Shown here one piece after another: positions 12,639 through 57,230 of a stretch of DNA of 64,000 nucleotides. The notes beneath the pieces are model-generated. The model searched no databases and was not told where the DNA came from. It was given only the letters and a program-made list of their open reading frames with translations. Each line of letters begins with the position of its first letter. Within the stretch, counting starts at the first letter, position 1. A program made the position numbers and the translations under genes. Origin of the DNA: a virus (Duplodnaviria; Caudoviricetes); IMG/VR virus record IMGVR_UViG_3300036976_000011, positions 1 to 64,000 of that record; one strand, 5' to 3'.

Positions 12639-13010
12639 CTACAACTTGTCAATCAGGGCCTGCAACTCATCAACGTCTTTTTCCAGCAGCTCCGCATCCT
12701 GCTTTTGCGCCAAGACGCCCAGGAGCTTTTGCTTGTGTGCGGCGTTGACCGCTTCCTTCTCACGCTCCATAGCCTCGGCCAGCTTGACCTTGACAATGTG
12801 CTTGACGATGGCGACCTGTAAGTCAAGCACCTCGTCCTCATCACTCGCAGTGTCAAGCAAGCTTTCTTCCTCTCGCGCCCTGACTTGACGATTCAGGGCT
12901 TTGTAGATAGCGTCTAGCTCCTCGACCGTCAAGAGCCATAGGTCCTCAACGTCCAATGGACCACGAGTTGACTGCCAGCGCAGTCTCATGCGTACAGCTT
13001 TTTGAAACAT
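12639..13010 (-). CDS. conserved phage protein
   Basis: MFQKA.R.RLRWQSTRG.L.VEDLW.L pattern, recognised from phages and paired with the large upstream gene. Confidence 0.75.
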   Translation of the reverse strand: MFQKAVRMRLRWQSTRGPLDVEDLWLLTVEELDAIYKALNRQVRAREEESLLDTASDEDEVLDLQVAIVKHIVKVKLAEAMEREKEAVNAAHKQKLLGVLAQKQDAELLEKDVDELQALIDKL

Positions 13011-13022
13011 TTTTCACTCTCC

Positions 13023-19889: not shown

Positions 19890-19898
19890 TATTCTCTA

Positions 19899-20009
19899 AA
19901 CGGTCAAGCCAGCGGTAACGAGCACGCGAACGCGGTAATTGAGGCTGGCAGTCAATGACGGCGTGCTGACCGTTACGATTTGATAGGGGCTGCGCATCTT
20001 ACACGCAGA
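19899..20009 (+). ncRNA. 111-bp repeated structured leader, copy 1
   Basis: Identical to 20528-20638; predicted nested pseudoknot. Confidence 0.6.
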
Positions 20010-20063
20010 CCGTGAGCGCCAGCACGGCAAGACTGGCGCAGATTAAGAAAAGGAGAAAATCAA

Positions 20064-20288
20064 ATGTACATTTCAGCATGGGAAATTTACACCGGAAGTT
20101 TACGAAACATCCTCAAGTCAGCAGTTGGACGTGAGGAAATCAAGTCCAGCGATATTGTCTGGCGCGGACCTTCAGGTGACGCGGTTGTCACCGGCGACGC
20201 GGCAGACCTCAGCCAGGACGATGATGACGCACCCGATTATTCAGACTATGTAGACAGTGGGCAAGTCAATGAATATCTCAATGACTGA
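20064..20288 (+). CDS. hypothetical acidic protein
   Basis: Strong RBS. Confidence 0.6.
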   Translation: MYISAWEIYTGSLRNILKSAVGREEIKSSDIVWRGPSGDAVVTGDAADLSQDDDDAPDYSDYVDSGQVNEYLND

Positions 20289-20469
20289 GGACATCGAAAC
20301 GCTCAAAAAATTTGTATTATTGGCAAACGCTCAATTTGACATTCTGCGCCAGATTCTTGATGAGCACCAACGAAAACTGGACATCTTGACGCAGCGGATG
20401 GATGTGCAGGCGGAGATGCTAAAAAACATCAAGGCCCGCATAGACATTTTGGCAGGGGGGAACAACTAA
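20257..20469 (+). CDS. coiled-coil hypothetical protein
   Basis: Coupled ORF. Confidence 0.55.
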   Translation: MGKSMNISMTEDIETLKKFVLLANAQFDILRQILDEHQRKLDILTQRMDVQAEMLKNIKARIDILAGGNN

Positions 20470-20527
20470 GTCGCAGGCCACCGGAACTCCGCTCTCGTCC
20501 CCCTCAAAGTTTCCAAGCGGTTTTATC

Positions 20528-20638
20528 AACGGTCAAGCCAGCGGTAACGAGCACGCGAACGCGGTAATTGAGGCTGGCAGTCAATGACGGCGTGCTGACC
20601 GTTACGATTTGATAGGGGCTGCGCATCTTACACGCAGA
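20528..20638 (+). ncRNA. 111-bp repeated structured leader, copy 2
   Basis: Identical to 19899-20009. Confidence 0.6.
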
Positions 20639-20650
20639 AAGGAAAAAACA

Positions 20651-20890
20651 ATGAGGTGGTCATCTGACCAGGAAGTAGTAGGCGGAACCAAGCGTCTACT
20701 AAAAACGCCAAGAGTTCGCCGTACCCTGACCGACATTGACGGTCAGAGATGGGTTGTCGCTTTGCGGCAAAACGAAGCCAGGTTCACGAACGCCTGGCTA
20801 AAGAAGGTGCGGGCCGACTCTTATCCCCACCTGACCATTGTTGAGATGCTCCGCTTCACTGGAGCAATCTCGTGGAGCGAGAAGAAATAG
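20651..20890 (+). CDS. hypothetical protein
   Basis: AAAGGA RBS; MRWSSDQ... Confidence 0.55.
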   Translation: MRWSSDQEVVGGTKRLLKTPRVRRTLTDIDGQRWVVALRQNEARFTNAWLKKVRADSYPHLTIVEMLRFTGAISWSEKK

Positions 20891-20891
20891 G

Positions 20892-21004
20892 CGCGAGCTA
20901 TTCCTGCTCCGCTGACGCTGGTCGAGGTATCTGGATAATTCCAGCGAAGGTCAGGTGTCGGGTTCGAGTCCCGACGGCCAGCGTCAGGGGCGCAGGAATG
21001 CGCG
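20892..21004 (+). ncRNA. tRNA-like structured leader with T-arm
   Basis: Long closing stem, CTGGA/TCCAG hairpin, GTCGGG-TTCGAGT-CCCGAC T-arm; no anticodon arm. Confidence 0.55.
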
Positions 21005-21035
21005 AAGCAACTCAAGCTAAAAGGAGAAAGGAAAA

Positions 21036-21518
21036 ATGAACTATCAGGATTGCAACGATTATAGAGAAAGTGGTCGCATGGCTGTGAATACCTGCCCTTG
21101 TGGTAAGCCAATCAAAGTAAGCATGAATGCTTCAGCATTCTATAAGTTGTACTGTCAGAGTTGTGTAGACCAAGCCAAGGAGTTCTGGCGGCAAGAATAC
21201 GCCAGGGCTATCAAGGAGCAAGGAAACCTTGACGAATTTGTTATCGCACTGCGCGAACACGGCGGCAAAATCACCGTGTTCAGAAAGAATCGCAGTGGGC
21301 TTTTTGGGGCATTAGAGGCCCTGATCCCTAGCCCTGGACCACCGCCTTGGTATGCACGCTTTAGCAATATTTTGCACGCCTTTGTTGCACACGAGATTTC
21401 ACATCCCGAAATCGAGGAAGAGCGAGTGGCTGTTCCATCGCGGTCCTATCACAAGTCCGCACTGCCGTGGGGAGAAGTGGGGCACAGCAGCCTCATCTTG
21501 CGCGTGAAAAGTCACTAG
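21036..21518 (+). CDS. hypothetical protein
   Basis: Strong RBS; CPCG..CQSC. Confidence 0.6.
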   Translation: MNYQDCNDYRESGRMAVNTCPCGKPIKVSMNASAFYKLYCQSCVDQAKEFWRQEYARAIKEQGNLDEFVIALREHGGKITVFRKNRSGLFGALEALIPSPGPPPWYARFSNILHAFVAHEISHPEIEEERVAVPSRSYHKSALPWGEVGHSSLILRVKSH

Positions 21519-21570
21519 CCCCGCGCTTTCTGCGCACAATTTCGATTGTGCGCAGAGAATACGGCGCTAG
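21515..21570 (+). other. perfect intergenic hairpin (processing or termination site)
   Basis: TCTGCGCACAAT-TTCG-ATTGTGCGCAGA. Confidence 0.6.
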
Positions 21571-21600
21571 AGAATCGTGCCTATAGAGAAAAGGAGAAAA

Positions 21601-22017
21601 ATGATGACGGAAATACTCAGAGTGTATAAGGGCTATGATAAAAATGACCTGGTCGGTTTCTTCCCGCGCCAACAGGCCATTGACATGGCGGGAAGTGGGA
21701 CCAATTATTGCGCCTGCGTCAACGGGCGCAAGTGTCAATACCATGCAGGCCTCAAGGCGGTTCAGCAGGATCGGGGCGGAAGTCTCCGCCTGCGCCCCGC
21801 GCCAACGCAGGCAGGGGTAGACGCCTTTCGTAATAGGATGGCGGACTTGGCCGAAGAACGGGGGTACACCCTCGACACGAACGCCTTTGGAATGCGCGGG
21901 GGATGGGTTTCCATTACCCGCGAAGGGCGTCCGTATATGCTGGACATCACCCGCAAAGTGTCTATCAAAGAACACGCTGGCGGGGAGATTGAGTTTGTGA
22001 GATGGTTAGCGACGTAA
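21601..22017 (+). CDS. hypothetical protein
   Basis: AAAAGGAG RBS. Confidence 0.65.
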   Translation: MMTEILRVYKGYDKNDLVGFFPRQQAIDMAGSGTNYCACVNGRKCQYHAGLKAVQQDRGGSLRLRPAPTQAGVDAFRNRMADLAEERGYTLDTNAFGMRGGWVSITREGRPYMLDITRKVSIKEHAGGEIEFVRWLAT

Positions 22018-22061
22018 ATTTCACGCCCACGCGCAACGGGCGCAGGGGCAAGGAGAAAATC

Positions 22062-22349
22062 ATGGACGGGATCGTAGAAAAATTATACAATGTTGGGTTC
22101 AATGCGGGAATCTCTGCTGAAATAGCGAGATTCAAAAACGAGGATCGCCTGGTTGCTTGTGCCACAGCCCTTGGAAAGCAAGTTGACGACCTGGACTTGT
22201 TCCAGGTTGACGCAAGCAAGAAGGGGAATTTCTGGACACATGATGCGGAGAGCGGGGTCGTTTGCTCGGGCCACCTATGGCCCAATGCAATCTATTTATT
22301 CCCGCTCTACGCCACCAATCCACCGCGCACCTTTATCTTTGCGCGATAG
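22062..22349 (+). CDS. hypothetical protein
   Basis: AAGGAG RBS. Confidence 0.65.
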   Translation: MDGIVEKLYNVGFNAGISAEIARFKNEDRLVACATALGKQVDDLDLFQVDASKKGNFWTHDAESGVVCSGHLWPNAIYLFPLYATNPPRTFIFAR

Positions 22350-22375
22350 GTGTAGAATAGCGCAAAATGTACCCA

Positions 22376-22515
22376 CTATTCCCCAGAACCCGGTTCGACT
22401 CCGGGACCAGCCCCACAAGACCGCTGGCGCTGACCGAGAGGCGGCGAGACAGGGTGGCGTCGGAGTGACGCGGAAGGGCGTGGGGCGCAGGAGTGGCGGA
22501 CTCGCTGGGGGATAG
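22376..22515 (+). ncRNA. multi-stem structured leader with T-arm
   Basis: 11-bp closing stem CTATTCCCCAG/CTGGGGGATAG, CCCGG-TTCGACT-CCGGG, GCCCCAC/GTGGGGC. Confidence 0.55.
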
Positions 22516-22534
22516 ACTCAAAAAGGAGAAAAAA

Positions 22535-22843
22535 ATGAATCACCATTACTACGAAAACATTATTATGCGATATCTGCCCGCCGCCGGGCGCACTGTGTTT
22601 GTGGACATTGATACAGCCTCGCGCCTAGTAAAGTATGGCGCGGGGTCGGTGGACCCACACCCAGTTACAAACAAACATGTACCAGTCCACATCGTCCCCG
22701 CGATGTTCTTGAATGTAGGGTATCTACGCCTGAACACTCACAGGCACAGCGCCAATTATATGAAGATGTGCATCCGCGGGTTACAGTATGAACCCGCAGC
22801 GATTCACGATGCTGCAGGACCGCGGCGGTTTTTGAGCAAGTAG
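22535..22843 (+). CDS. hypothetical protein
   Basis: AAAAAGGAG RBS. Confidence 0.65.
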   Translation: MNHHYYENIIMRYLPAAGRTVFVDIDTASRLVKYGAGSVDPHPVTNKHVPVHIVPAMFLNVGYLRLNTHRHSANYMKMCIRGLQYEPAAIHDAAGPRRFLSK

Positions 22844-22890
22844 CAAAAACAGGCCAGCCGGGAGCCTCTAATCCCGGCAAAGGAGAAATC

Positions 22891-23139
22891 GTGAGCTGGC
22901 TGGAAAAAATCATCGCAGATATTGAGTACGAAAAGTTTAAAGTCTCCACAAGAGGAAATGTAATCAGGCTCGACTTCTCACAGCCCGTCAACGAGTGGGA
23001 CAATGGACAGTTTTGGCTAGAGTTTCACGTTGAACCAGGATGCGTTACCATCCTGGATAGTACGTGGGGCGAAGAAACCATTGATATAGAAACGACCGTT
23101 TCAGAAATCACCGCCGCGCTTGCAAGCGCCAAGAGTTAG
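22891..23139 (+). CDS. hypothetical protein
   Basis: Hairpin plus AAAGGAG RBS, GTG start. Confidence 0.65.
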   Translation: MSWLEKIIADIEYEKFKVSTRGNVIRLDFSQPVNEWDNGQFWLEFHVEPGCVTILDSTWGEETIDIETTVSEITAALASAKS

Positions 23140-23171
23140 CAACGCCGAATCCCGGCAAAGGAGAAACAAAA

Positions 23172-23744
23172 ATGGATTTCGACCTGTTCGAAAATTATCA
23201 AGTACTCGCGCCAAAAGGCGCATTCTATCAATTCCTGCGCAATGGTCAACCACGCGTGTTCGGCAGGTTTGACCACAACGAAAGTGAGTGGAAGGCTGGG
23301 CGGCGAGTTGGCACGCTGCTAGGAATCCCGGCGAGTGGACCAGAGCTTCGTGACGGAGGCGGTCCACCAAGGGCGGATATGTACGGTGAAGACGCCATAC
23401 GTTGGCTGTCCACCTACCTACAGGGTTGGGGCAAGTTTAGAAAAAGGAGAAAAACGATGGAAAAATTTCAATTCACAAATTCGCTGCACCTAACCAAACT
23501 TTCCAGTCCACCAGACATAGACTTCGAGAGTATTGGTTCGCCCAAATGGTGGCTACAAGAAAATCTCGAATGCTTTGTTGCTGGCGGCGGTCTCGATTGG
23601 CTTGCCGTTGGCGAGGCCGCTGAAATGCGCCACCTCGATAGTGAACGAGATGGGCGCATTTTTATTCGCCGCGAGAACGTCTTGTTGGCGTACTCGCGTG
23701 GGTCTGCCAGCCACGCGGCGGACTGGGGACGATTGGCGGTGTAG
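23172..23744 (+). CDS. hypothetical protein (contains an internal in-frame RBS and ATG near 23457)
   Basis: Two RBS-ATG pairs in one frame. Confidence 0.6.
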   Translation: MDFDLFENYQVLAPKGAFYQFLRNGQPRVFGRFDHNESEWKAGRRVGTLLGIPASGPELRDGGGPPRADMYGEDAIRWLSTYLQGWGKFRKRRKTMEKFQFTNSLHLTKLSSPPDIDFESIGSPKWWLQENLECFVAGGGLDWLAVGEAAEMRHLDSERDGRIFIRRENVLLAYSRGSASHAADWGRLAV

Positions 23745-23769
23745 CGCCGCCACAGGGAGAGGAAAAAAG

Positions 23770-24042
23770 ATGTCAGAAGAACATTGGGATCACCCTGACA
23801 ACCTGAAGGCGGTCAAGGCGTTCCGTTCCAGAAGTGCCGCCAGGGAATACCGAAAATTTCAGGGGTGGCGCTCTAACTATGCAAGAATACGGATGTTCCA
23901 CCGCCCAGATCACCCCTGGGCGAATAAGCGCGGGAACATTTTCGCCCTGCGCATAGGCGCAGAGACCCCCGGCGGCTGGAAGTGGCTATTCGAGCATGGA
24001 GAAATAACCTTCGGCTGCTTTCATGGCCTGCCGAAGGACTAA
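23770..24042 (+). CDS. hypothetical protein
   Basis: GGAGAGG RBS; MSEEHWDHP... Confidence 0.6.
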   Translation: MSEEHWDHPDNLKAVKAFRSRSAAREYRKFQGWRSNYARIRMFHRPDHPWANKRGNIFALRIGAETPGGWKWLFEHGEITFGCFHGLPKD

Positions 24043-24046
24043 CCCC

Positions 24047-24073
24047 AAGCCCCGTTTCGGCGGGGGCTTTTTT
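24047..24073 (+). terminator. intrinsic terminator
   Basis: AAGCCCCG-TTTCGG-CGGGGGCTT followed by a T tract. Confidence 0.8.
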
Positions 24074-24085
24074 GCATTTTGGGGA

Positions 24086-24114
24086 TTGACACGGAAAGCC
24101 AAATGTGATAAAAT
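24086..24114 (+). promoter_or_regulatory. sigma70 promoter
   Basis: TTGACA-17-TAAAAT. Confidence 0.85.
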
Positions 24115-24123
24115 TGTCGTATT

Positions 24124-24318
24124 ATGACAAAGCGGAAAATCAAGACTTTTACAGCTAGCGAGTGGAGCAAGTTGTCCACCAAGCGCCAGATTGATGCAGC
24201 GCGGTTTCATGGCAAAATCCACGTGACCTGGTGGGGCAGAGTTGAAATGATAGTCACTGCCGCGCCACACGAGGGGAGCAAAAATGAACAAGCTGACGTG
24301 TCCAGCCTGCAAAACTGA
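24124..24318 (+). CDS. small basic protein (antitoxin/Phd-like DNA-binding?)
   Basis: Directly downstream of the promoter. Confidence 0.5.
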   Translation: MTKRKIKTFTASEWSKLSTKRQIDAARFHGKIHVTWWGRVEMIVTAAPHEGSKNEQADVSSLQN

Positions 24319-25090
24319 ATACGTCCCCGCTGACCGCTCCAAGCTATACCAACTCATCAGCGGCAACGGCCCGCGTTCGCAGCGATGGGAAGGCAACAGC
24401 GCCTCAGACCTAACGCAGACCTGGCCGCGCCAGCAGCGCCTGGAGTTGCCCGACTGGGCAACGGGGAAAGTTTGGGAGCGAGCTTTGCAGACGGCTATCT
24501 CTTGCCTGGTTGCGGGGGGATGCTCTTACACTATCTCCCTGGACAATCCGCCTATCGAGACCGTTGGCCTCGTCGCCGGCTTTGTCTGGTTCGGGTCTAT
24601 GCTCTTGGGCGACGGGAACTGGCGTATTGTATTCAACTGGCTTGATAGGAATAGGGACGGCCGGCTAACGATAGCTGACGTTCATGCCGCCATTGACGAG
24701 GCCCTGGGCCATGACGAAGACGAGCCGCCCGGTCCCCTGCCAGAAATTCCCGTTGAGGTCATCATAGGTCAAGTCACCCGGCGCGGCATTCTCAACGCTA
24801 CCCAAGAGCAAATGGAGCAAGCCGCTCATATCATGGACGCTAATCCAGAAAGTGCGTTCTCCAAGCGTGTCGTGGGGCACGTGTTTGGGGAAGGGCTGTT
24901 CTCAAAAGTTCAGGCAGAAATGCTCAAAACGGGGTTGCTTGGGGGCAGTCGTCACACGGGTTACAAGTTGACCCGCGAGGGATGGGCACTGATGAAACGC
25001 TATCTCCCCCACCCTACCGGGAGTGGAGACTCTGAAAATGGTGGATTCCACCACTCACCACCAGCCACCACCACCCAGGGAGTGAAATGA
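24284..25090 (+). CDS. membrane protein with EF-hand-like loop
   Basis: Two transmembrane helices; LDRNRDGRLTIADV. Confidence 0.65.
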   Translation: MNKLTCPACKTEYVPADRSKLYQLISGNGPRSQRWEGNSASDLTQTWPRQQRLELPDWATGKVWERALQTAISCLVAGGCSYTISLDNPPIETVGLVAGFVWFGSMLLGDGNWRIVFNWLDRNRDGRLTIADVHAAIDEALGHDEDEPPGPLPEIPVEVIIGQVTRRGILNATQEQMEQAAHIMDANPESAFSKRVVGHVFGEGLFSKVQAEMLKTGLLGGSRHTGYKLTREGWALMKRYLPHPTGSGDSENGGFHHSPPATTTQGVK

Positions 25091-47883: not shown

Positions 47884-47916
47884 TTCAAATGCCTCTCAAC
47901 CAGCGCCATTGCCCTG

Positions 47917-48081
47917 TCAACCTTCGAGAGGATATGCAGCGCCAGACTCCTCTAGCCAGCGCAGCACTTCAATTATCCCCTCCTCATAGCTCATGCCGGG
48001 AAACTTTGAGCCTTGGTCTATGCCTTCGGCTGCATCGTTGTAAAGTTGCTCGATTTCCTCTTTTGTCCTTATGATTTGCAT
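47917..48081 (-). CDS. small acidic protein
   Basis: AGGAG RBS; MQIIRTKEEIEQLY. Confidence 0.6.
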   Translation of the reverse strand: MQIIRTKEEIEQLYNDAAEGIDQGSKFPGMSYEEGIIEVLRWLEESGAAYPLEG

Positions 48082-48236
48082 GATATCTCCTGTACGGTTG
48101 GGGCGCGTCCTCACACTGTCGGCACGCGCCCCTTCAGTTGTTGTCCGACCAGTGCCACCGGTCGGGTGCGACAGCGCCGCCTCAATGGCGCTGCTAGTGG
48201 CACGTGACAGACTCAAACTGTCTCGGATTGAGGCCG

Positions 48237-48447
48237 CCTGCGATTGGGGAATTGAACCCGCACCTCAGTCCTTTATCCTAGAGCGAATCGCCAACGCTCC
48301 CGTGCCATATCCACTGCTGCCCAGGACGCACCAGTGCTCACAGCCCTTGTCGAATTATTGCACTGAGGCTAAAGCCGGCTTCGCCCCCGCTTGCCACCTT
48401 GACCAGGGTATGGCAATCGCAGTGGCAGATGGATGCGCCCTGGGCAG
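48237..48447 (-). ncRNA. structured ncRNA with 3' tRNA-like module
   Basis: 14-bp CTGCCCAGGGCGCA/TGCGTCCTGGGCAG, 9-bp CTGCGATTG/CAATCGCAG, CCTCAGT/ACTGAGG, GGGTTCAATTCCC T-arm. Confidence 0.6.
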
Positions 48448-48472
48448 TTGTGGATTTTAACGTGCTTGCGAA

Positions 48473-48562
48473 TGCGTCAGGACAGAATCGAACTGCCAAT
48501 GTTACCCAATCGGGACCGGGGTTACAGCCCGGCGCTACACAACCAATAGTAGCCTCTGACGC
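48473..48562 (-). tRNA. tRNA-Tyr(GTA), no encoded CCA
   Basis: Acceptor GCGTCAG/CTGACGC, anticodon loop CTGTAAC, long variable arm, TTCGATT. Confidence 0.9.
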
Positions 48563-48577
48563 ATGTGGGCTTTAACT

Positions 48578-48606
48578 AGGATAGCCCTATTTCCCTGACT
48601 TGTCAA
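48578..48606 (-). promoter_or_regulatory. sigma70 promoter for tRNA-Tyr and the downstream ncRNA
   Basis: TTGACA-17-TATCCT. Confidence 0.75.
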
Positions 48607-48704
48607 CGGCCTAGTACCGCCCGACGGGGGCTCGTGCAGGGAACAAGCCCCGTGACACCTTCATCGCCTTGGCACAGTATGTCGCCATTTGGTCAGTCGG
48701 TGTG

Positions 48705-48778
48705 TGGGACCGGCAGAAGTCGAATCTGCAACCTCTTGAGTCTAAGTCAAGCGCCTCTACCAATTGGGCTACGGTCCC
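48705..48778 (-). tRNA. tRNA-Leu(TAG) with short variable loop
   Basis: GGGACCG/CGGTCCC, CTTGA-CTTAGAC-TCAAG, 5-nt variable loop, TTCGACT. Confidence 0.88.
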
Positions 48779-49026
48779 ATGTGCTTGGTCTAGTACAATT
48801 CCACAATCCAGTTGCCTGAAGCAGAATCACACAACAGCATCCTGCCCAGAAACGTCCGTTCCCTCTCGTGCCGCAGCAGATCTTCTGCCACGCTGCCGCA
48901 CCTTGATATCGCAACAATTGTGTACTCATTGGCAAGAACGGTGTAATATTTGTTGTTGGCTTTTGCTTGATTGCTCAAGATTTGATTGACTGTAGTCTCC
49001 ATCTGGCTTCTCAATTGTGAAAGTTT

Positions 49027-49085
49027 GCCGGTTATTATTCTCTGCCGACCGGCGGCGGCGCATCTTCTACTCACACTAGTGGACC
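49027..49085. repeat. 59-bp direct repeat, copy 1
   Basis: Identical to 50750-50808. Confidence 0.95.
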
Positions 49086-49233
49086 TTAACTAGAATTGGT
49101 CCTGTATCTCATAGTGCCCGCGTCTCCCGTCCTGGAATTTCGTTTCAGAGGTCTAGTACCAATTTAAGCGATGGCCCAGGATACCGTCACTTCCGACACC
49201 CACGGTACAAGCGACCGGGCGAATTGGGTATGA

Positions 49234-49308
49234 TGGACGCAGCCAGATTCGAACTGGCGACTTCTGCATTTTCAGTGCAGCGCAACTACCAGGCTGTGCT
49301 ATGCGTCC
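49234..49308 (-). tRNA. tRNA-Phe(GAA), no encoded CCA
   Basis: GGACGCA/TGCGTCC, CTGCA-CTGAAAA-TGCAG, TTCGAAT. Confidence 0.92.
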
Positions 49309-49316
49309 AAGTTGCC

Positions 49317-49463
49317 GGCGGCTTGAGAATTGGTAGTATTTTGACCGCCTTCAGTATGACGACAGCGGCAGGCGTCCAATTGTTAACGATGTAGTTATCA
49401 CACACCGGTCATTTTCGCCGCCTGGTTCGCCAAGCCCGCAATACTACCAATTCTCAAGCCGCC
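49317..49463. repeat. perfect 24-bp inverted repeat enclosing about 99 nt
   Basis: GGCGGCTTGAGAATTGGTAGTATT / AATACTACCAATTCTCAAGCCGCC; overlaps the ligase stop. Confidence 0.9.
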
Positions 49464-50722
49464 TCCTCACGATCCACGAAATCTTCACTGTCTTTTAGGT
49501 AGCCCTCTAACAAGCCAAAGGTAAATGACTTGTGTTTGTAGAAGTGCGTACCGTGTTCATTGTCAACTCGAATAGCCACACCTTCACGGATATGGCTACT
49601 ATCTAGCACAGAAGGCCCGTCAATATAGCTCTCAATTACGGCGCGCAACCCTCTACCATCCAGGGTATGAAAACGCTGACTATACTCCGGTACATGATCA
49701 ATGCCAAGCTCATCGCAGCGTCGTTTTACATCGCGCCACGGGAGCTCAAATTGCACACCGTCCTCGTTTGCCTGCACGATACGATAGACAAATGCCTTGC
49801 ACTCCCCAGGTTCACAGCCGTAGGAATATATCATCTCGTCACCGTAGCTCTTTTTGACATCCCCGTCACGGAGCTTGCTGATGTTTTGCGGTTGCATAAT
49901 GGGCTCGTTTTGGCCAGCCCATCCGACAATCTCCATATAGACGACTTCGCCTTTGTGGAGATTGTTTTGTAGTCTTTCGACGGCCCTGTAACGAAAACCG
50001 TCGTTGCTATAATAAGTTGCGCCGTCATGGTGCTCAAGAATTACACGCCGCGTACCAGACAAATAGCGCCAAGCCATTTTGTGACTAAATCGAGCGCCAA
50101 ATCTATTCAGTGCTCGTTTCCACCACGGCAGCGGCATCTTATCCAGCACATGACCAAGTCGGTGACTCGTGCCGTGCAATTTTTCCGTGATCGTTATGAG
50201 TGATTCTGGCGGTATAATATCTGCTGCATCTCTGAACTGGTCAGTTTTAATGTGCATTCTAAACATGGTAGTTTCACGGCGATGTTTGATACTGCGCTGG
50301 CGCGCATGTCGCGTGGCTCTAGTGACATACTTATTACAAATTGGTACGCCATTAAGGCTATCAAACTCATCGCCTATCTTGAGCCTATCAAGATCATGAC
50401 CTGTAAATTCAAAGTATGACAGCGGCGCAAGAAACCCTTCGCTCTTTGCGCCACGGAATTTCTGTGCGCGCACGCGACGATTAGCTTCAAAAAAGCCACC
50501 CTCTTTTGCTCCCGTCTCTGGATTTGTGCGCCGAACTAGGTCATTGGATTGTGCAAATTGCTCGCTTAGTTGACCATCGGATCGAAAAAACACCATCAAG
50601 TCACCGTCTTGCGTATTCAGACCAACAACGACTTGATAGCCTAGTGCTGTGGCTAATTTTAGTCTGTCAGCATCTGGATGGGGTCGCGTATAGACTTTGA
50701 CAACTTTGGCTTTGTAGGTCAT
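49454..50722 (-). CDS. RNA ligase (Rnl2/DRB0094-like) with N-terminal OB fold
   Basis: HPDADRL, motif I TEKLHGTS, YMEIVG, REGVAIR, FYKHKS. Confidence 0.88.
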   Translation of the reverse strand: MTYKAKVVKVYTRPHPDADRLKLATALGYQVVVGLNTQDGDLMVFFRSDGQLSEQFAQSNDLVRRTNPETGAKEGGFFEANRRVRAQKFRGAKSEGFLAPLSYFEFTGHDLDRLKIGDEFDSLNGVPICNKYVTRATRHARQRSIKHRRETTMFRMHIKTDQFRDAADIIPPESLITITEKLHGTSHRLGHVLDKMPLPWWKRALNRFGARFSHKMAWRYLSGTRRVILEHHDGATYYSNDGFRYRAVERLQNNLHKGEVVYMEIVGWAGQNEPIMQPQNISKLRDGDVKKSYGDEMIYSYGCEPGECKAFVYRIVQANEDGVQFELPWRDVKRRCDELGIDHVPEYSQRFHTLDGRGLRAVIESYIDGPSVLDSSHIREGVAIRVDNEHGTHFYKHKSFTFGLLEGYLKDSEDFVDREEAA

Positions 50723-50749
50723 TTTTTCCACCTCTGAATAAGCATTCTC

Positions 50750-50808
50750 GCCGGTTATTATTCTCTGCCGACCGGCGGCGGCGCATCTTCTACTCACACT
50801 AGTGGACC
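50750..50808. repeat. 59-bp direct repeat, copy 2
   Basis: Identical to 49027-49085. Confidence 0.95.
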
Positions 50809-51544
50809 AGGGGAGACTTGAACTCCCTCGCGGGGACTATTTGCTAGCATTGTCATCCCCACTATTCTGTGACCTGCCAGTCACAGCACAACCGCTATCC
50901 CAAGAGCGGCAACTTCTGGCCCGTGTTGCCGGTTTTGCTATCGCACTCCGGCTCGTGCGCCCTGTTTGGCTGCGGGAACCAGCACGGGCGCGGTTGTTAT
51001 CCCTAATGTCCGTTAGCTTCCACCTACTCACCTGTGTTTTCGGCTTCACCCCCTCAAGCGCCCCGGTCAACACACAGAGCTTGGGTTTCACCACGGCCTT
51101 GATCATGGGCCACGGACTAATGCCCGCTACGGGATGTTGGCGCAGTTGGGAAGTCGAACCCACTTTGTACTACGGAACCCTCTCCGCGCCAATGTTGCCG
51201 CTCTGCCGTCATTGCTCTGGTGGGGCCGTGGCCTGAGCAGGCTTGATCGGTGATTCCCCGTCACGAACAGAGCAAACATTTTGTTAAAGTCAGCCCGTGG
51301 GCCAGGTCTTTCACCTGCCTAGCCACGTCTGGCACGGTCGGGACACATTCAGGACCGCTGTAGTGCGTGTCACTTCTGCTACAGTCGCCACGGGCCAACT
51401 GGCGCGGTAGACAAGTGCTCATCCACCGCCAGGGACACTCTACACACGGTCGGTGCGCACCATCTTGGGCTAGGGGCGGGTAGCATTCGCGCCCGCCACG
51501 CTGAGCCAGTTTCCGTGCCTTATAGGGGGGTAGAGTGCCCCTGG
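50803..51544 (-). ncRNA. large (about 740 nt) highly structured ncRNA region with two T-arm modules
   Basis: More than 15 GC-rich stems visible by eye, a GAAA tetraloop, T-arms at about 51137-51192 and 50803-50826, and no credible RBS-led ORF. Confidence 0.65.
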
Positions 51545-51996
51545 TGAGTGATGAACTATCGTTGACATTTCTTGCACATTTTCAAGCTCGGTCTTTCTTG
51601 ATAGAGAGCAGCCCGCCCATTATGAACACGCAAGCCACATTTTGTGTAATGTGCATGGACGCGCTCATGATAAACTCTACTCCCTTTTACAACGACGTAC
51701 TTTTTCATATTTTCCTCTCTCGCCCATCACTAGCCACACGAGCGCCAGCACGCGCAGGGTCTCAAGGCTGGTCAACGCGCCGTCCCAGGTCGTTGGACTG
51801 TGACGCCCGCGTGGCGACTGATGAATCAATCATCAAGAAGGTTCCGTAGAAACATGCTTGTTGAGCAAGCAGACAATGCGCTAATCCACCCATCCGCCCC
51901 TAGCGCCTGCATTGCGATAAACATTAGCAGACCGCCCCACAGAGACAGTATATAATTTATTGTTTGTTTAATCACCTTTTTTTCTCTCAATCCCTC

Positions 51997-52441: not shown

Positions 52442-52470
52442 ATTATAGCACACTTTAACCAGTGTGTCAA
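52442..52470 (-). promoter_or_regulatory. consensus sigma70 promoter (twin of 57202-57230)
   Basis: TTGACA-cactggttaaagtgtgc-TATAAT. Confidence 0.9.
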
Positions 52471-52913
52471 GTGTTTCGTTTGAATAGTAGCCCTTCCCGG
52501 CGGCACTTGGCCTGCACGGCCCTTGGTGTCCTGTCCAGTTTTTTAGCCATCGCGGAGCATGTCATCGTCTTGTAAAATTTGTGCAGAAACTCAACCTGGT
52601 CTTTCTGCCAATACATCGAGCCAACGCCAACGCCAAGCCTCTGCGCCCGCTGATTTACTGCTATTGCAGACCGCCCTAGTTCCTCTGCAAGTTCACTCGC
52701 TGGCAAATGTTTATTTGCTAGCAACCTAGCGTCATCTTCGTCTGTCCATCGCTTGAGCTTACGCAGCCCAAGTTGCCTGCGCTTTTGTTTTATGGCTTCG
52801 GCAGTGCGGTTGAGTCGCTTGCCTATCTGTTCATCAGTACAATGACGCCAGTACCATTTTAGGTATCGGGTTTCAAGGGAGGTCCAGGATTTGTTCGTTT
52901 TCATGTGTAGCAC
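52467..52913 (-). CDS. triple Myb/SANT-like repeat DNA-binding protein
   Basis: Three WTxxE/D...L...IG/LA..LxRT..AI..K/R...LG repeats. Confidence 0.75.
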   Translation of the reverse strand: MLHMKTNKSWTSLETRYLKWYWRHCTDEQIGKRLNRTAEAIKQKRRQLGLRKLKRWTDEDDARLLANKHLPASELAEELGRSAIAVNQRAQRLGVGVGSMYWQKDQVEFLHKFYKTMTCSAMAKKLDRTPRAVQAKCRREGLLFKRNT

Positions 52914-53638
52914 CGCACTTCTGGAAATTCAGCGGCAAAGCGGTTGAAACCTTCTAAATTCTCACACTTGCTTCGAGCTAGACCGCCGTAATCTGCCATC
53001 ATTCTTGTGACCCTGGCAGTAGTACGTACTTGCAAGCCTTGCTCCTTGTATAGATTCAAAAGCGGCAGGTTGTGCTCTGAAATATACGCCGCCAGGTCCA
53101 GGAGCTCCCACTCCATGATTGGACAACACCGGTATTTACTATCAACATATTTAAAAATAGTTGGATGGGGCTGTCCTTTCCAGCGGCTTGACAATGTTCG
53201 TTCTCTGTCCGCGCTTTCACCTTTAGATAGCCCCCAGTACCAACCGTCCCAATATTCACGCTTTGTCATAGTTTGTAAGTCCCATTGCCCCTTATCTCTA
53301 CTCTCTTGCCATGATTCAGAATTTGTAATATTAAGCGTCTGTACAATGGTTAATTCAATCGGCCATTGAGCCAAGAACGTCTCTATGACTTCCTGAAAAT
53401 TGTGTATCCACCATGATTCCTCTGAGGCAAGAAAGTACATTGGTATTTGTGGAGCAATTTGGTATATCATGTGTGCTAGGCAAACAGATTGTTTGCCAAA
53501 GGAGACTGAGACATACGCTCTTGGAGCTAGCCTGAGCATTTCCTCAATACCAGACAGAGCAAAATCTAATCTGTATCGCCTCTGCCGCAATCGAGCATAA
53601 AGCCTTGCTTCAGCCATTTGCCTTTCAAATATCTTCAT
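52901..53638 (-). CDS. cysH: CysH/PAPS-reductase-like protein of type IV-B CRISPR-Cas
   Basis: YVSVSFGKQS (PP-loop variant), WGLSKGESADR, CCPIMEW...DLAAYI..HNLP.L.LY. Confidence 0.85.
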   Translation of the reverse strand: MKIFERQMAEARLYARLRQRRYRLDFALSGIEEMLRLAPRAYVSVSFGKQSVCLAHMIYQIAPQIPMYFLASEESWWIHNFQEVIETFLAQWPIELTIVQTLNITNSESWQESRDKGQWDLQTMTKREYWDGWYWGLSKGESADRERTLSSRWKGQPHPTIFKYVDSKYRCCPIMEWELLDLAAYISEHNLPLLNLYKEQGLQVRTTARVTRMMADYGGLARSKCENLEGFNRFAAEFPEVRCYT

Positions 53639-54041
53639 TGCGTCGCCACTCCCACAAAGCTATTGCCAAAGCTGCCTCTACCGTTAGCCCAGAAACACAG
53701 CCGATCATAGGTATTTGCACTTTCTGCGCAGCGCGTAGCGACCTTGGCAATCCATTTGATTCACCACCAAGCACTATCGTCGTCACCTCGGACCAATCCG
53801 TTGATTCTATTGAGTGCTCGTAATAGGTTTCAAGAGCCAATAGGCCATACGGCAACGGCCAATCAGATAGCGTCTCCAGATCAACTCTATCCTTTGCCTT
53901 GAAAAGATTTCCGGCCAAGAGGGCGCTTCCGCAGTCCAATAACAAAAGCCGAGACACACCAAATGCTTCTGCGGTACGGTAGGCTCTATTCAGGTTCCGA
54001 TTTACTTGATAAAGTAGAACGTCCACCAAATACCTCGTCAT
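53625..54041 (-). CDS. minimal SPOUT (SpoU/TrmL-like) RNA 2'-O-methyltransferase
   Basis: NRNL.RAYRTAEAFG, IVLGGESNGLP, VQIPMIG...GLTVEAALAIALWE. Confidence 0.8.
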   Translation of the reverse strand: MTRYLVDVLLYQVNRNLNRAYRTAEAFGVSRLLLLDCGSALLAGNLFKAKDRVDLETLSDWPLPYGLLALETYYEHSIESTDWSEVTTIVLGGESNGLPRSLRAAQKVQIPMIGCVSGLTVEAALAIALWEWRRNEDI

Positions 54042-54525
54042 TCATAGCACGCCACGGGTGCTTCTTTCCCCTTGGCCTTTGCGCCATTTCTTTGGCCCAT
54101 CTGCGTCGCTGTTCCCACCATTTTGGCGAGCGATTATAAATCACGCCGCGCAAGTTATCAGGCGTGTATCTATACACAGTAAACTCAGATACACCAAGCT
54201 TGCTGGCAACTTCACAGCACCGCTTCCTTTGAACCAAGCGCATGTCAATAATTGCCTCGGTTGCATTCTGATAACCCAGCATCATCGCTTTCCTATCGGT
54301 CTCAGTTACGCTACTTCTGTTATCGTGCTTGTGAGCACTTTTGTCTATAGGCAATCCAAATAACTTTCTCCAATTGAAAAGCGCCCGTGTAGACACACCA
54401 AGCACGCCTGCTATCGTGCCCCACGAGCACCCCTGCTCGCGCATTCCGGCGATTACATCTTTGACCGGTTCTTCAAATTCACTCTCTATTCTATTCCACA
54501 ATTTTTGTCTCGTGGCAATGCTCAT
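53986..54525 (-). CDS. double HTH protein
   Basis: SWGTIAGVLGVSTRALFNWRK and CEVASKLGVSEFTVYRY. Confidence 0.7.
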   Translation of the reverse strand: MSIATRQKLWNRIESEFEEPVKDVIAGMREQGCSWGTIAGVLGVSTRALFNWRKLFGLPIDKSAHKHDNRSSVTETDRKAMMLGYQNATEAIIDMRLVQRKRCCEVASKLGVSEFTVYRYTPDNLRGVIYNRSPKWWEQRRRWAKEMAQRPRGKKHPWRAMNDEVFGGRSTLSSKSEPE

Positions 54526-55262
54526 CCTGGAACCGCCAAGCGTCTTTGGTGCTCAGGCCGGTAATAAGATGGTCTAAGACCATAATGCGCAATGTTGAAT
54601 GGCTTGAACTCGCCGTGTTGCTGGATGAGTTCAAGCGCGTCCTCTTTTGGCACACCACGCGTCAACTCACCATTACGCCAGAGCGACCAATTTTCCTGCC
54701 AACTTTCAACTGTCCAGAACACGCGCCCCCACCCCTGACTTGCTTTCTTTCCTATATGCGTCATGGTGCTAAGAAGCGCCTCAATTTCGCCTCTATCACC
54801 AATGCAATACCAATGCACGCGCTCGGCTACCCGCGCAAAGACCGGCATGTGATAAGCCCGATATTTGCCTTGTTCAACGATAACCTTCCCGCGTCGCGTG
54901 CCAAAGTCTACCAGGTCTGCGTACTGCGTGTCAAATCGCTTATTCCAGTGACTTGTGTCCTCTGCGATCCACCACGGCTGAGGCTGTGCCCACGAACACG
55001 CAAAATACCAGTCAGGTGTACCATGGTTGATGATTTTGAGCGGCATGTGAATCCCGCGCAGGTTCGTCCTGACACCGCCCGGCAGCGTGGCCTGCTGTGG
55101 ACCGTGTGCTAGCCTATGCGCCTGATACCACAAGAGACCGTCTAGTGGCAACCACTGGTCACATATTGGATTCGTGCGGAATCGCGCCGTGACACGCAAT
55201 GGCTCGTAAGCTTTACCGTAAGGCATTGAGTAGCTCCCGGATATTGTCAGCATGGCTCTCAA
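54522..55262 (-). CDS. csf3: Csf3 (Cas5-like RAMP), type IV
   Basis: PLRVTA, LPLDGLL, YFACSW, G.YRAYHMP, WYCIGD..EIE.LL....HIGKK.SQGWGRV, RP.Y. Confidence 0.88.
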   Translation of the reverse strand: MRAMLTISGSYSMPYGKAYEPLRVTARFRTNPICDQWLPLDGLLWYQAHRLAHGPQQATLPGGVRTNLRGIHMPLKIINHGTPDWYFACSWAQPQPWWIAEDTSHWNKRFDTQYADLVDFGTRRGKVIVEQGKYRAYHMPVFARVAERVHWYCIGDRGEIEALLSTMTHIGKKASQGWGRVFWTVESWQENWSLWRNGELTRGVPKEDALELIQQHGEFKPFNIAHYGLRPSYYRPEHQRRLAVPG

Positions 55263-56184
55263 GATGGCTCATGTAGCGATTGCCAAGCGGCAAGTCAACG
55301 TCTTTTCCCGTTGGCGCGATACGTGGATTTATCTCTATCCACTTGTCGAAGCTGATAGAGACTTTGCCATGCCCTGTGCCGGACTTGCCACCGATGTACG
55401 GCCTGCGCCCAAACTCTGCCAGCGTCACAGCGAATGCTTCAAATTCTACGTCTGTCACATCATCAAGCGCAATTTCCCAAAAGAAACGTGTGCCTGCCGC
55501 CAGCGTCTCGACCTGGTATCTCATTTGCTGCTTTTGGCCCGTTTTTTTTACCACATCCTGGTCTGTACCGGTTTTGGCGCGCTCATCTGCCGCCTTGGCC
55601 TCAAGCAAGCCACGTACCTCTGGCGCTATCAACTGACGTAGCTTTTCGTCTTTCTCATCGTCCTTGCGCGTGAACGCTTCGCGCTGGCACAAATCCCACA
55701 CCGAGACGAGCTCGCCGTCTGTGAAACGATCCGGCAGAATCCATGCAGTTTCTTCGCAAATCGGGATGACCTTACCGAATTTAGCCTTCCCAGGCAACAT
55801 CTGATTCCCACACGCCGCGCCAAAGAGCGCCAGAAGTGGGATAGCCTCGCGCCACTGCCGCGCCTTGTCAATATCAAGACCGCGGGAACCACCTTTTTCC
55901 AACGCGCCACCAGAAAAGAGCATGTAATACGCTGCCAGGCTCAAACCATGCACCTCTCCGTTTTCGTTCACGCCATAGCCAAGCTGACGTAGCATGTGGT
56001 ACATTCCAATGTCGCGGAAAAGTCCCCGCATCGAGTTGCCGCTAATAATTGGCACGATCTCTACCGTACCGTTACCTTGCGCTACCTTTTCGCGTCGCAG
56101 CATTGAGTTGATACCGTGTGTCTCTCCGATGTGCGAGATGCTGGTTAGCGCCGTAACGACGCCCTCAAAAATGTACGTGTGCAT
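55213..56184 (-). CDS. csf2: Csf2 (Cas7-like backbone), type IV
   Basis: LTSISH, VPIISGNSMRG..R, LFSGG.L, PL.ALFG, L.GK, IGGKSGTGHG. Confidence 0.92.
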   Translation of the reverse strand: MHTYIFEGVVTALTSISHIGETHGINSMLRREKVAQGNGTVEIVPIISGNSMRGLFRDIGMYHMLRQLGYGVNENGEVHGLSLAAYYMLFSGGALEKGGSRGLDIDKARQWREAIPLLALFGAACGNQMLPGKAKFGKVIPICEETAWILPDRFTDGELVSVWDLCQREAFTRKDDEKDEKLRQLIAPEVRGLLEAKAADERAKTGTDQDVVKKTGQKQQMRYQVETLAAGTRFFWEIALDDVTDVEFEAFAVTLAEFGRRPYIGGKSGTGHGKVSISFDKWIEINPRIAPTGKDVDLPLGNRYMSHLESHADNIRELLNALR

Positions 56185-56585
56185 TATGCCTCCTCAAATA
56201 GCGGAGCGTCTAGCGCCGCCTCTAGCTCATCTTGTTCTTTCCGACGTGCCTTGTACTCATCTTGTGCGTCCTGATTGCGTACGCGCACCATGAGCACGAG
56301 CAATATCGTTTCGTCCCTCATCAATTTCAAAATTGATCTATCCCGCCCCGAGTTTAATATCTTATTGGCTTCTACCTTCTCTGCTTTTGTCTTGCCGACG
56401 TTGGCATTAAGATTCAAACAAAGAGAGCTGACGAACGTCCCCAGGCTGCTCGTGTACGCTGCACTCCTCACCTGGTCCTCGAACTGTTGCCATATCGTCG
56501 TTCGGTAACGGCTCTTGTAATCTGGTGGTACGCCGCGCCAAATTATCCACAGAAACTCTGCCGCCTCTTGATGCTCTGGTGTCAT
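56184..56585 (-). CDS. cas11: Cas11-like small subunit, type IV-B
   Basis: Helical protein ...IWQQFEDQVRSAAYTSSL..F...L..MRDET..LV..VR between csf1 and csf2; AGGAG RBS. Confidence 0.78.
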   Translation of the reverse strand: MTPEHQEAAEFLWIIWRGVPPDYKSRYRTTIWQQFEDQVRSAAYTSSLGTFVSSLCLNLNANVGKTKAEKVEANKILNSGRDRSILKLMRDETILLVLMVRVRNQDAQDEYKARRKEQDELEAALDAPLFEEA

Positions 56586-57195
56586 CTTTGCTCCTTTGCG
56601 CCAGGAATAGCGCCAATTGAAAGAGCAAGCCACCGCGCTTGCTCTTGATCCCACTCTCCAAAGTCCACCACTGTTCCACGCCAAACTGGCGAACTCTGTG
56701 CTGTACGTAATCACCTGTCTCGATTTCCTCTTTAGAAAATTGGGCGTGGAGGGATTCAACTAATGTCAGAAGCTCTTTTAATTCCATTGGCTGGACAAAA
56801 AGAGATTGCTCCTCAAACTGCACCCACCCACACGTTGCACCTAGCGGGTTCCGCCGCGCCCTAAAGACAATATGTTTTTGACCACTTTCTGCTATCGTGG
56901 CTAGCTCTGGAAAAGGCACACCCAAGAGGATGCTTTGCATGTGTTGCTTATCAGCCTTACTAAGTGGTATCCACATACCGCTGACAACAAAGTGAGAGTA
57001 GTTGCGCATGCGCTGGGGCTTGTCTTTACCAACCAACGCAGCAAGCTCTGCGGAGCGTTCGTCAAACCAAAACAAACAACTGTCACATACACCATCACCA
57101 TCAAGCAGTTTGTCATGGTCAACAAATGTGGGCTTGACCCACCTGTTGAAATCAGTCATGTCATCTGATTCATTACCGCAAAATCTACACAGCAT
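56407..57195 (-). CDS. csf1: Csf1 (Cas8-like), type IV
   Basis: CRFCG..TF.DHD.L..VCDSC, MRNYSH, P.L..IAESGQKHI.FRA, FSKEEI.TG.Y. Confidence 0.85.
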   Translation of the reverse strand: MLCRFCGNESDDMTDFNRWVKPTFVDHDKLLDGDGVCDSCLFWFDERSAELAALVGKDKPQRMRNYSHFVVSGMWIPLSKADKQHMQSILLGVPFPELATIAESGQKHIVFRARRNPLGATCGWVQFEEQSLFVQPMELKELLTLVESLHAQFSKEEIETGDYVQHRVRQFGVEQWWTLESGIKSKRGGLLFQLALFLAQRSKDDTRASRGGRVSVDNLARRTTRLQEPLPNDDMATVRGPGEECSVHEQPGDVRQLSLFES

Positions 57196-57201
57196 GTTCT
57201 A

Positions 57202-57230
57202 ATTATAGCACGCCTTAACCAATGTGTCAA
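57202..57230 (-). promoter_or_regulatory. consensus sigma70 promoter, probably leaderless csf1 mRNA
   Basis: TTGACA-cattggttaaggcgtgc-TATAAT, with the ATG 6 nt after the -10 box. Confidence 0.9.

Follow-up and report, generated by a model that had tools for sequence, protein, structure and literature searches.

A structured non-coding region with tRNA-like parts behind tRNA-Tyr in a phage tRNA island

The locus studied here raises a simple question: which RNA, if any, is specified by the stretch of DNA that separates a phage tRNA-Tyr gene from the next open reading frame? The window, that is, the whole stretch that was analysed, comprises 64,000 nucleotides (positions 1 to 64,000 of the IMG/VR virus record IMGVR_UViG_3300036976_000011). 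A first-pass annotation of it had read positions 48237 to 48447 as a single pseudoknotted RNA of about 210 nt that mimics a tRNA. On the minus strand, to which it belongs, this feature runs from 48447 to 48237 and starts 25 nt 3' of tRNA-Tyr. We find that this stretch is a real, unusually structured orphan non-coding region, the tRNA-like parts of which are genuine but defective.

The gap downstream of tRNA-Tyr

The parent virus record is 90,407 bp long, has direct terminal repeats and carries phage structural genes (portal, major head protein and endolysin / tape-measure-like protein) as well as plasmid-like genes (a ParM-type actin and a D5-type primase). Nearly all genes near the element lie on the minus strand. 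On this strand, ARAGORN called a tRNA-Phe (49309-49232), a tRNA-Leu(UAG) (48778-48704) and a class II tRNA-Tyr(GUA) without encoded CCA (48472-48563), in that order, and the structured element comes next. All three tRNAs scored above the gathering threshold of the RF00005 model (29 bits), with 65.4, 61.7 and 40.7 bits, the last value being that of tRNA-Tyr at 48473-48562. A PF09414 RNA ligase, the cassette of which is bounded by 59-bp perfect direct repeats, is encoded 1 kb from the element and forms, with the three tRNAs and further tRNA-like modules, an RNA-centred island around it.

About 15 nt upstream of tRNA-Tyr we found a sigma-70-like promoter match (TTGACA-17-TATCCT, 48578-48606, minus strand), a consensus match at 10 of 12 positions and the putative start of the element-bearing transcript. 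A sequence resembling this site is also present upstream of 49085. No terminator-like site was found on the minus strand between tRNA-Tyr and the first downstream ORF, which encodes 54 aa (47917-48081, minus strand) and has an AGGAG 7 nt before its ATG. The start of this ORF, at 48081, is the 3' limit of the non-coding stretch, and the gap that separates it from tRNA-Tyr is ORF-free over 389 nt (48471-48083). The frames that overlap this gap, one of 129 aa on the plus strand and a TTG-extended one of 99 aa on the minus strand, belong to no Pfam family, in agreement with the first-pass reading of the region as non-coding. Judging from the sequence, the gap is probably transcribed together with tRNA-Tyr.

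Two domains and two interleaved tRNA-like frames

The folding of the entire 389-nt gap yielded -172.9 kcal/mol (z = -4.9), beyond all of the 57 background windows of 389 nt taken across the genome (mean z = -0.8, sd 1.1, minimum -4.0), while a 231-nt core reached z = -2.6. The plus strand of the gap folds almost as well (z = -4.7), and folding energy alone does therefore not fix the strand. The structured unit reaches to about 48100, well past 48237, and splits into at least two domains over some 390 nt, which does not fit the one discrete RNA of about 210 nt that had been proposed.

Domain 1 (48309-48455, 147 nt, minus strand) was recognized both as an inverted repeat (I3) and by folding. It is closed by a long interrupted stem, AUCCAC-AA-CUGCCCAGGGCGCA / UGCGUCCUGGGCAG-CA-GUGGAU, the arms of which (48455-48434 / 48330-48309) measure 22 nt each and are paired at 20 of 22 positions, as 6+14 bp on either side of a 2x2 internal loop. 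The 14-bp helix reported previously, CUGCCCAGGGCGCA with UGCGUCCUGGGCAG (48447-48434 / 48330-48317, minus strand), is indeed present with a pairing probability of ~1.0, although it is the inner part of this 22-bp interrupted stem and not a standalone helix. It contains one G.U pair that fits the minus strand only, as the plus-strand counterpart is a C.A mismatch. With about two turns (at least 20 bp) of mostly Watson-Crick pairs, the Domain 1 stem has the duplex length of an RNase III stem. It closes a 103-nt loop with three hairpins, one of them D-arm-like (UUGCCA...CUGGUCAAGG...UGGCAA); the D-like hairpin of the tRNA-like frame A, described below, has a loop of 8-14 nt. The MFE of Domain 1 is -74.1 kcal/mol (z = -4.8), and 0 of 200 shuffles folded as well.

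Domain 2 begins one nucleotide after Domain 1 and is a 110-nt cloverleaf (frame B; 48198-48307, minus strand) found by folding and by the closure scan presented below, with helices at pairing probabilities of 0.98-0.99. It consists of an acceptor-like stem of seven perfect pairs (UGGCACG/CGUGCCA, 48307-48301 / 48204-48198, P ~0.99), a D-like arm (GGAGCG-UUGGCGAUU-CGCUCU, 48300-48280), a long irregular arm that occupies the anticodon position without a 7-nt anticodon loop, and a T-like arm, T2 (GACAG-UUUGAGU-CUGUC, 48222-48206), and its 3' flank is CUAG. Acceptor and T-like arm stack as 7+5 bp with either a 1-nt spacer or a G.A at 7:66, the T-loop has a U where C56 is expected, and the 8-9 linker is missing. 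Taken alone, Domain 2 has an unremarkable folding energy (z = -1.3), equalled by 21 of 200 shuffles. It is followed at 48100-48194 on the minus strand by three stable hairpins (8, 9 and 9 bp; folding, inverted repeat I11), none of them with a U-tract after it.

A second tRNA-like frame, frame A, extends across both domains. The perfect 9-bp helix on which the first-pass annotation had built a tRNA-like elbow, CUGCGAUUG with CAAUCGCAG (48422-48414 / 48246-48238, minus strand), was recovered by sequence and folding. Its 3' strand lies directly 3' of a hairpin with a canonical T-loop, T1 (GGG-UUCAAUU-CCC, 48259-48247, minus strand), the two together forming the segment 48238-48259. The helix thus abuts a T-arm as claimed, although the T-stem is only 3 bp long: it consists of three G-C pairs, and the next two positions are C.C and G.A. 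The 9-bp acceptor-like helix and the 3-bp T-stem add up to a 12-bp stack, the length of the acceptor/T branch of tRNAs. Frame A spans 185 nt and, as noted before, no anticodon arm was found in it; a 7-nt anticodon loop is absent from both frames. GG is present in both D-like loops. Frame A has G-C at position 3:70 and frame B has C-G, so that the reported lack of a G3.U70 pair is correct for either frame.

In the nested fold, the 5' strand of the 9-bp helix (48422-48414) sits in hairpin H1 of Domain 1, while the T1 hairpin and 48246-48238 sit at the tip of the long arm of Domain 2. The 9-bp helix crosses both the 22-bp stem of Domain 1 and the 7-bp stem of Domain 2, two stable helices, and can thus only be a tertiary or an alternative pairing. 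The interleaved arrangement described earlier does exist in this sense, but the probability of the 9-bp pairing in the nested ensemble is 0, and forcing it without a knot costs ~25 kcal/mol. Leaving both of its strands unpaired and adding the duplex gave -164.9 - 12.4 = about -177 kcal/mol before any knot penalty, compared to -172.9 kcal/mol for the nested fold. On this estimate, a pseudoknotted or alternative 9-bp pairing is energetically plausible. We could not identify two non-conflicting 7-bp helices inside 48237-48447, as had been listed; a candidate, CCACUGC/GCAGUGG (48425-48419 / 48317-48311), competes with other helices. [quoted passage not shown] To our knowledge, a design with two interleaved acceptor/T-arm minihelices has not been described for any tRNA-like RNA, and we consider it distinctly unlikely here.

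The frequency of such elbows was evaluated by scanning the genome for hairpins with a T-loop whose closing acceptor/T stack measures 12 bp, with 40 dinucleotide shuffles as background and with rules that were set after seeing the sequence. Seven closures were observed versus 0.48 expected per shuffled genome, namely, the three tRNAs, frame A, 50922-50804, 20918-20981 (plus strand) and one that is probably fortuitous. The 9/3-type closure was found once in the genome versus 0.05 expected per shuffled genome, and the closure of frame B (a 5-bp T-like hairpin and, 1 nt after it, a strand that forms seven perfect pairs with an upstream one) is expected 0.025 times. The tRNA-like character proposed for the region is thus statistically non-random, and it is unlikely that the frame A elbow arose by chance, bearing in mind that the scan rule was set after this case had been seen. 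As for the region in its entirety, a chance structure in a GC-rich intergenic spacer would be in line with the lack of conservation and of a known family, with the z of -1.3 for Domain 2 alone and with the post hoc rules of the closure statistics. However, chance would have to account for a gap with z = -4.9, outside all 57 background windows, and for two closures, each expected at most 0.05 times per genome, that lie within 230 nt of each other on the tRNA strand and beside the tRNA cluster. We therefore regard it as very unlikely.

Both frames are defective (3-bp T-stem, U56, no anticodon loop, G.A or spacer at 7:66), as would be expected if duplicated tRNA or tRNA-like genes had been broken and interleaved by insertion or rearrangement, leaving functionless relics. 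Indeed, the T2 arm is identical to the T-arm of tRNA-Tyr at 14 of 17 positions in a direct comparison, the core of the match being repeat family D2. Moreover, interleaved frames are hard to square with one working fold, the 59-bp perfect repeats indicate recent rearrangement in the island, and the nearest relative of the downstream gene has neither tRNAs nor the element at this site. Decay would nevertheless leave unexplained the 20/22-paired stem of Domain 1 (z = -4.8) and the perfect 9-bp and 7-bp closures, as well as the fact that the gap is the most stably folding 389-nt window among those sampled. An origin as scrambled tRNA-gene remains is, in our view, rather unlikely.

Known families, relatives and neighbouring structures

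Rfam searches returned only tRNAs at the gathering threshold over the whole window, and only tRNAs and noise at E <= 10 over 47900-49500, 19500-24500 and 50700-51700. This comparison, which the first-pass annotation had proposed as a check, thus matched the element to no known family even at E <= 10. Over the whole genome, only the three tRNAs scored with RF00005, leaving frames A and B unscored in 48083-48471, and the tRNA-Sec model RF01852 matched the element only at the T1 hairpin (8.4 bits). At default settings, ARAGORN reported neither a tRNA nor a tmRNA in the element. With introns and -ps80 its sole call was a poor 'Ala(ggc)' that has 4 acceptor pairs, and the one call in tmRNA mode with -ps70 was permuted, implausible and located on the opposite strand. 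The lack of a default tmRNA call and of an Rfam match at E <= 10 speaks against a tmRNA. A tRNA identity was rejected as well, given that there is no RF00005 score and no 7-nt anticodon loop. We also dropped, on account of size, arm order or an absent partner gene, the readings as an intron-containing tRNA (group I or bulge-helix-bulge), as a permuted tRNA, as a retron ncRNA and as a Y RNA.

We then looked for homologues. The element had no blastn match in phage and plasmid records, and exact or degenerate patterns for T1 plus acceptor, T2 plus acceptor and the shared T-arm variant had none in viral, metagenome and genome collections. The same collections contained no match to patterns for tRNA-Tyr and tRNA-Leu, and the CRISPR-like repeat of the phage, used as host marker, gave no match either. 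A neighbourhood search covered the relatives of the RNA ligase, a 161-aa ORF, the capsid protein and a cysH-like gene; no relatives of the capsid protein were found, and the other three genes have relatives, none of which carries the element. The ligase has over a thousand homologues, and in the 80 viral loci examined the element was absent by blastn, by nhmmer and by a single-sequence covariance model of Domain 1. Among the relatives of the 161-aa gene downstream, the closest (L009, 60% identity) has other genes at the corresponding position, without tRNAs and without the element, and a small ORF at the same position is not significantly similar to the 54-aa ORF. An 88-kb relative found via the cysH-like gene (L017) shares only the type IV-B operon, as compared at that locus. 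Overall, no homologue with which the helices could be compared for covariation was found in the collections searched, which may lack near-identical records.

These neighbours also bear on the idea of a trans-acting tRNA mimic, in which the 9-bp pseudoknot would build a tRNA elbow. This idea is close to the first-pass proposal of a decoy or ligase substrate, a role supported only by the PF09414 ligase 1 kb away. Such an RNA could be a decoy or sponge that occupies a tRNA-targeting nuclease or a tRNA-binding enzyme of the host, or it could serve the neighbouring RNA ligase or SPOUT methyltransferase as substrate or guide. A mimic is in agreement with the non-random tRNA-like closures, with the canonical T1 loop (UUCAAUU) and the GG of both D-like loops, and with an energy of the pseudoknotted state (-164.9 plus -12.4 kcal/mol) that competes with the nested -172.9 kcal/mol. 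It also fits an RNA-centred island that holds, besides the PF09414 ligase and three tRNAs, tRNA-like modules of which one has G3.U70 and A73. On the other hand, no conservation was found, and the ligase cassette is bounded by the 59-bp repeats and is present in relatives that do not have the element, so that the linkage between element and ligase looks incidental. We thus consider a trans-acting mimic unlikely.

Two additional long stems of 24-25 bp, with loops of ~90-100 nt, are located in the same 3.3-kb island. The first has 24 perfect bp in 147 nt (49463-49317, z = -8.9) and ends 8 nt before tRNA-Phe, and the second has 25-nt arms (51554-51419, z = -3.8; inverted repeat, folding). Comparable long-range repeats occur roughly once per 50 kb in ~700 kb of other phage loci. 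No significant sequence is shared among the three long-stem modules, for which alignment scores were no better than those of shuffles, and the Domain 1 covariance model hit the two other stems at E ~0.03-0.06, on par with unrelated hairpins. A paralogy of the three modules was rejected on these two grounds.

Repeats of this kind could also act at the level of DNA, as recombination, transposition or protein-binding sites, for example, as an att-like core at tRNA-like 3' ends or as MITE-like inverted repeats. Indeed, the 59-bp direct repeat and the 3' end of Domain 2 both start with (G)CCACTAG, two inverted-repeat modules have the same length of 147 bp, and the plus strand folds almost as well as the minus strand. 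However, the three inverted repeats have unrelated arms, which align no better than shuffles, the G.U pairs fit an RNA on the minus strand only, and no integrase was noticed in a non-exhaustive scan of the ORFs near the element. We hold a DNA-level element to be highly improbable.

The module at 50922-50804 is one of several further tRNA-like modules of the island that are non-decoding, with G3.U70, A73 and a tetraloop replacing the anticodon loop. Phages with the same ligase family often have tRNA clusters beside the ligase, and several of these clusters contain tRNA-like frames of 84-147 nt that are uncalled by ARAGORN. In these frames the acceptor, D-arm and T-arm are canonical, and the anticodon position is taken by a large insert. 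The island of tRNAs and tRNA-like RNAs in phage N4 was also located, and it represents a possible comparison family.

We compared the element with known systems. tmRNAs combine a T-arm and an acceptor that carries G3.U70 with pseudoknots and with a tag reading frame that has a resume codon, and some forms keep only the tRNA-like domain. The element is similar to them in its acceptor/T-arm minihelix and in the long irregular helix that takes the place of the anticodon arm, but it has no G3.U70, no tag frame and no match to tmRNA models. RNase III processing stems are found in polycistronic stable-RNA precursors, such as rRNA operons and phage early transcripts. The island has three stems of ~22-25 bp that likewise bracket RNA next to tRNAs; however, the bracketed pieces are only ~90-100 nt long here, and their cleavage is something we infer.

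Phage T4 encodes RNAC and RNAD (the species 1 and 2 RNAs) with its tRNA genes. T4 makes both of them as small stable RNAs, and their function is still unknown (PMC9697503). Compared by description only, as Rfam has no model of them, our element would like them be a small non-decoding phage RNA, but it is larger and composite, with a 22-bp stem and two interleaved tRNA-like frames. The allo-tRNAs (Mukai et al. 2017) are RNAs of ~90 nt found with a tRNA-Sec model. Their acceptor branch of 12 bp is divided 9/3, their D-arm is Sec-like, with a long stem and a tetraloop, and they also have a 7-nt anticodon loop and a long variable arm; they are irregular, are found in polycistrons, and some of them were judged non-translating (PMC5389517). 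Frame A has the same 9-bp acceptor and 3-bp T-stem, together with a canonical T-loop. In contrast to allo-tRNAs, it is 185 nt long, has a D-like loop of 8-14 nt and no anticodon arm, and its 8.4 bits with RF01852 come from a hairpin only.

The YrlA-type Y RNAs of bacteria and phages (Chen et al. 2014) combine a long stem with a tRNA-like module that has D-like and T-like hairpins (PMC4201824). They are encoded beside Ro60, carry a GNCGAAN0-1G motif near their 5' end and are permuted in the order T, acceptor-like stem, D (PMC4201824). A GGCGAAG in Domain 1 fits this motif; however, the motif-like string lies mid-loop, and in the element D comes before T. No TROVE (Ro60) match was found in the 90-kb genome, and no Y RNA match was found in Rfam.

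A processed non-decoding RNA as the favoured reading

Overall, we tentatively favour, with a probability of roughly 40%, the reading that the gap gives rise to a tRNA-derived RNA that does not decode and that RNase III and RNase P-type processing would release from the transcript of tRNA-Tyr. RNase III substrates comprise about two helical turns, and stems of 22-25 bp are of the size required, while RNase P, RNase Z and the CCA-adding enzyme measure the 12-bp acceptor/T stack. Such a coaxial stack with a T-loop is present in both frames A and B. The element would be co-transcribed with tRNA-Tyr and then cut by the stable-RNA processing enzymes of the host. RNase III would cut within the 22-bp stem of Domain 1, and RNase P/Z would act at a tRNA-like minihelix of 12 bp, after which CCA might be added. 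This minihelix would be that of the 7/5 cloverleaf (48307-48198) or, alternatively, the 9/3 stack (48422-48414 / 48259-48238). Processing would thereby separate tRNA-Tyr from the downstream mRNA, the latter would keep protective 5' hairpins, and one or two stable small RNAs of ~110-150 nt would be released.

Several findings argue for this processing reading. The gap folds more stably (z = -4.9) than the background minimum (-4.0), Domain 1 by itself reaches z = -4.8, and the G.U pairs point to the minus strand, on which the neighbouring genes and tRNAs also lie. A promoter-like site precedes tRNA-Tyr, and there is no terminator-like site before the ORF at 48081. The two acceptor/T closures, each expected at most 0.05 times per shuffled genome, point in the same direction, while the rejection of both frames by the tRNA model and the lack of a 7-nt anticodon loop make decoding unlikely. 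Furthermore, two more stems of 24-25 bp lie in the same 3.3-kb island, such repeats being met about once per 50 kb in other phage loci, and ligase-carrying phages have tRNA-like frames of 84-147 nt that tRNA finders miss. Recognition of a tRNA-like RNA by RNase P has a precedent, since one bacterial Y RNA of tRNA-like form is an RNase P substrate and acquires CCA (PMC4201824).

Other observations argue against processing. No homologue was found, Domain 2 alone has a z of only -1.3, frame B has a U at 56 and no 8-9 linker, and the T-stem of frame A is limited to 3 bp. The plus strand, at z = -4.7, folds almost as stably, the closure rules are post hoc, and RNase III hairpins are normally small-looped.

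What is established is the sequence itself, its stable fold, tRNA-like closures that are not random, and the absence of both a coding signal and a known family; the co-transcription, each of the cuts and any role of the released RNAs are inferred. As to its kind, the element fits among the unannotated tRNA-like and stable RNAs of phage tRNA islands, and what is unusual about it is the combination of interleaved 9/3 and 7/5 frames behind a long stem. As a single orphan sequence, its value is that of a lead and not of a result.

Many RNAs in phage tRNA islands are missed by tRNA finders and by Rfam. A defined case would provide a substrate to study how phages use the tRNA and rRNA processing enzymes of their hosts to punctuate transcripts. 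It would also bear on whether minihelices of the 9/3 type are recognised outside true tRNAs, and on whether non-decoding tRNA mimics interfere with tRNA-targeting defences. If the double mimic were true, the phage could use it to titrate or divert defence nucleases or those enzymes of the host that recognise tRNAs.

tRNA-like RNAs in the window and in other RNA ligase phages

We found a 119-nt tRNA-like RNA on the minus strand at 50804-50922, with a folding z score of -3.2 against shuffled sequences. A G3.U70 pair and A73 are present, the D-stem is 6 bp, the extra arm is long, the T-arm is perfect, and a tetraloop takes the place of the anticodon loop; neither ARAGORN nor the tRNA model called this RNA. 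On the plus strand, a minihelix (20918-20981; z = -3.4) was found to consist of a 12-bp acceptor-like stem adjoining a perfect T-arm. This minihelix lies inside a plus-strand block lacking a long ORF (19900-24300), which shows a strong A-over-T skew (0.15 to 0.25) and harbors a second perfect T-arm hairpin at 22389-22405.

tRNA-like frames of 84 to 147 nt are also present in other phages with an RNA ligase. Among the loci fetched as relatives of neighboring genes, such frames were located in L031 (3810-3919, 8424-8554, and 8687-8796), L033 (1822-1961), L081 (2358-2495 and 2937-3048), and L095 (5933-6078). They display a 12-bp acceptor/T stack, large inserts at the anticodon position, and often a canonical D-arm, and none of them was called by ARAGORN.

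Repeats and structured RNAs around the RNA ligase gene

The RNA ligase gene, a 147-nt stem module, and tRNA-Phe lie between two perfect 59-bp direct repeats (49027-49085 and 50750-50808). Both repeats start with GGTCCACTAG, which is also the 3' end of the tRNA-like RNA at 50922-50804, and a similar sequence, GCCACTAG, ends Domain 2, the 110-nt cloverleaf at 48307-48198 (minus strand). The stem module (49317-49463, minus strand; z = -8.9) is built of a 24-bp perfect stem around a 99-nt loop with three hairpins; its 5' start falls inside the RNA ligase ORF, in the final codons, and its 3' end lies 8 nt upstream of tRNA-Phe. Within the RNA ligase ORF itself, 49601-49989 (minus strand) gave the second most stable fold among the sampled 389-nt windows (z = -4.0) and contains an imperfect 19-nt hairpin at 49926-49965.

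A tRNA with the Leu anticodon UAG was identified at 48704-48778 (minus strand), with a short variable loop and a length of 74 to 75 nt. Short tRNA-Leu(UAG) genes also occur in tRNA clusters of phages sharing the RNA ligase family (L038, L043, and L045), the L043 gene being 79% identical to that of the window across 53 nt.

Other neighboring genes and a consensus promoter

Distant relatives of the downstream 161-aa ORF (42% identity) were found in 100-kb phage contigs (L010 to L012), about 2 kb away from a Ro60/TROVE gene; in L010 this arrangement lies at about 12700-14160. The window's phage lacks a TROVE gene.

The type IV-B (Csf) operon at 52467-57230 (minus strand), in which a SpoU-type methyltransferase gene and a PAPS-reductase-like gene are embedded, was found again with both of these genes in phage contigs L017, L018, and L021. 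There, gene order is variable and neither a tRNA island nor an ncRNA island is attached; nucleotide identity between the operon of the window and that of L017, an 88-kb relative, is 66 to 71%. Immediately following the operon, a promoter-like site (52442-52470, minus strand) matches the consensus perfectly, reading TTGACA-17-TATAAT and including TG; downstream of it lie small ORFs and a 740-nt non-coding region (51544-50803).
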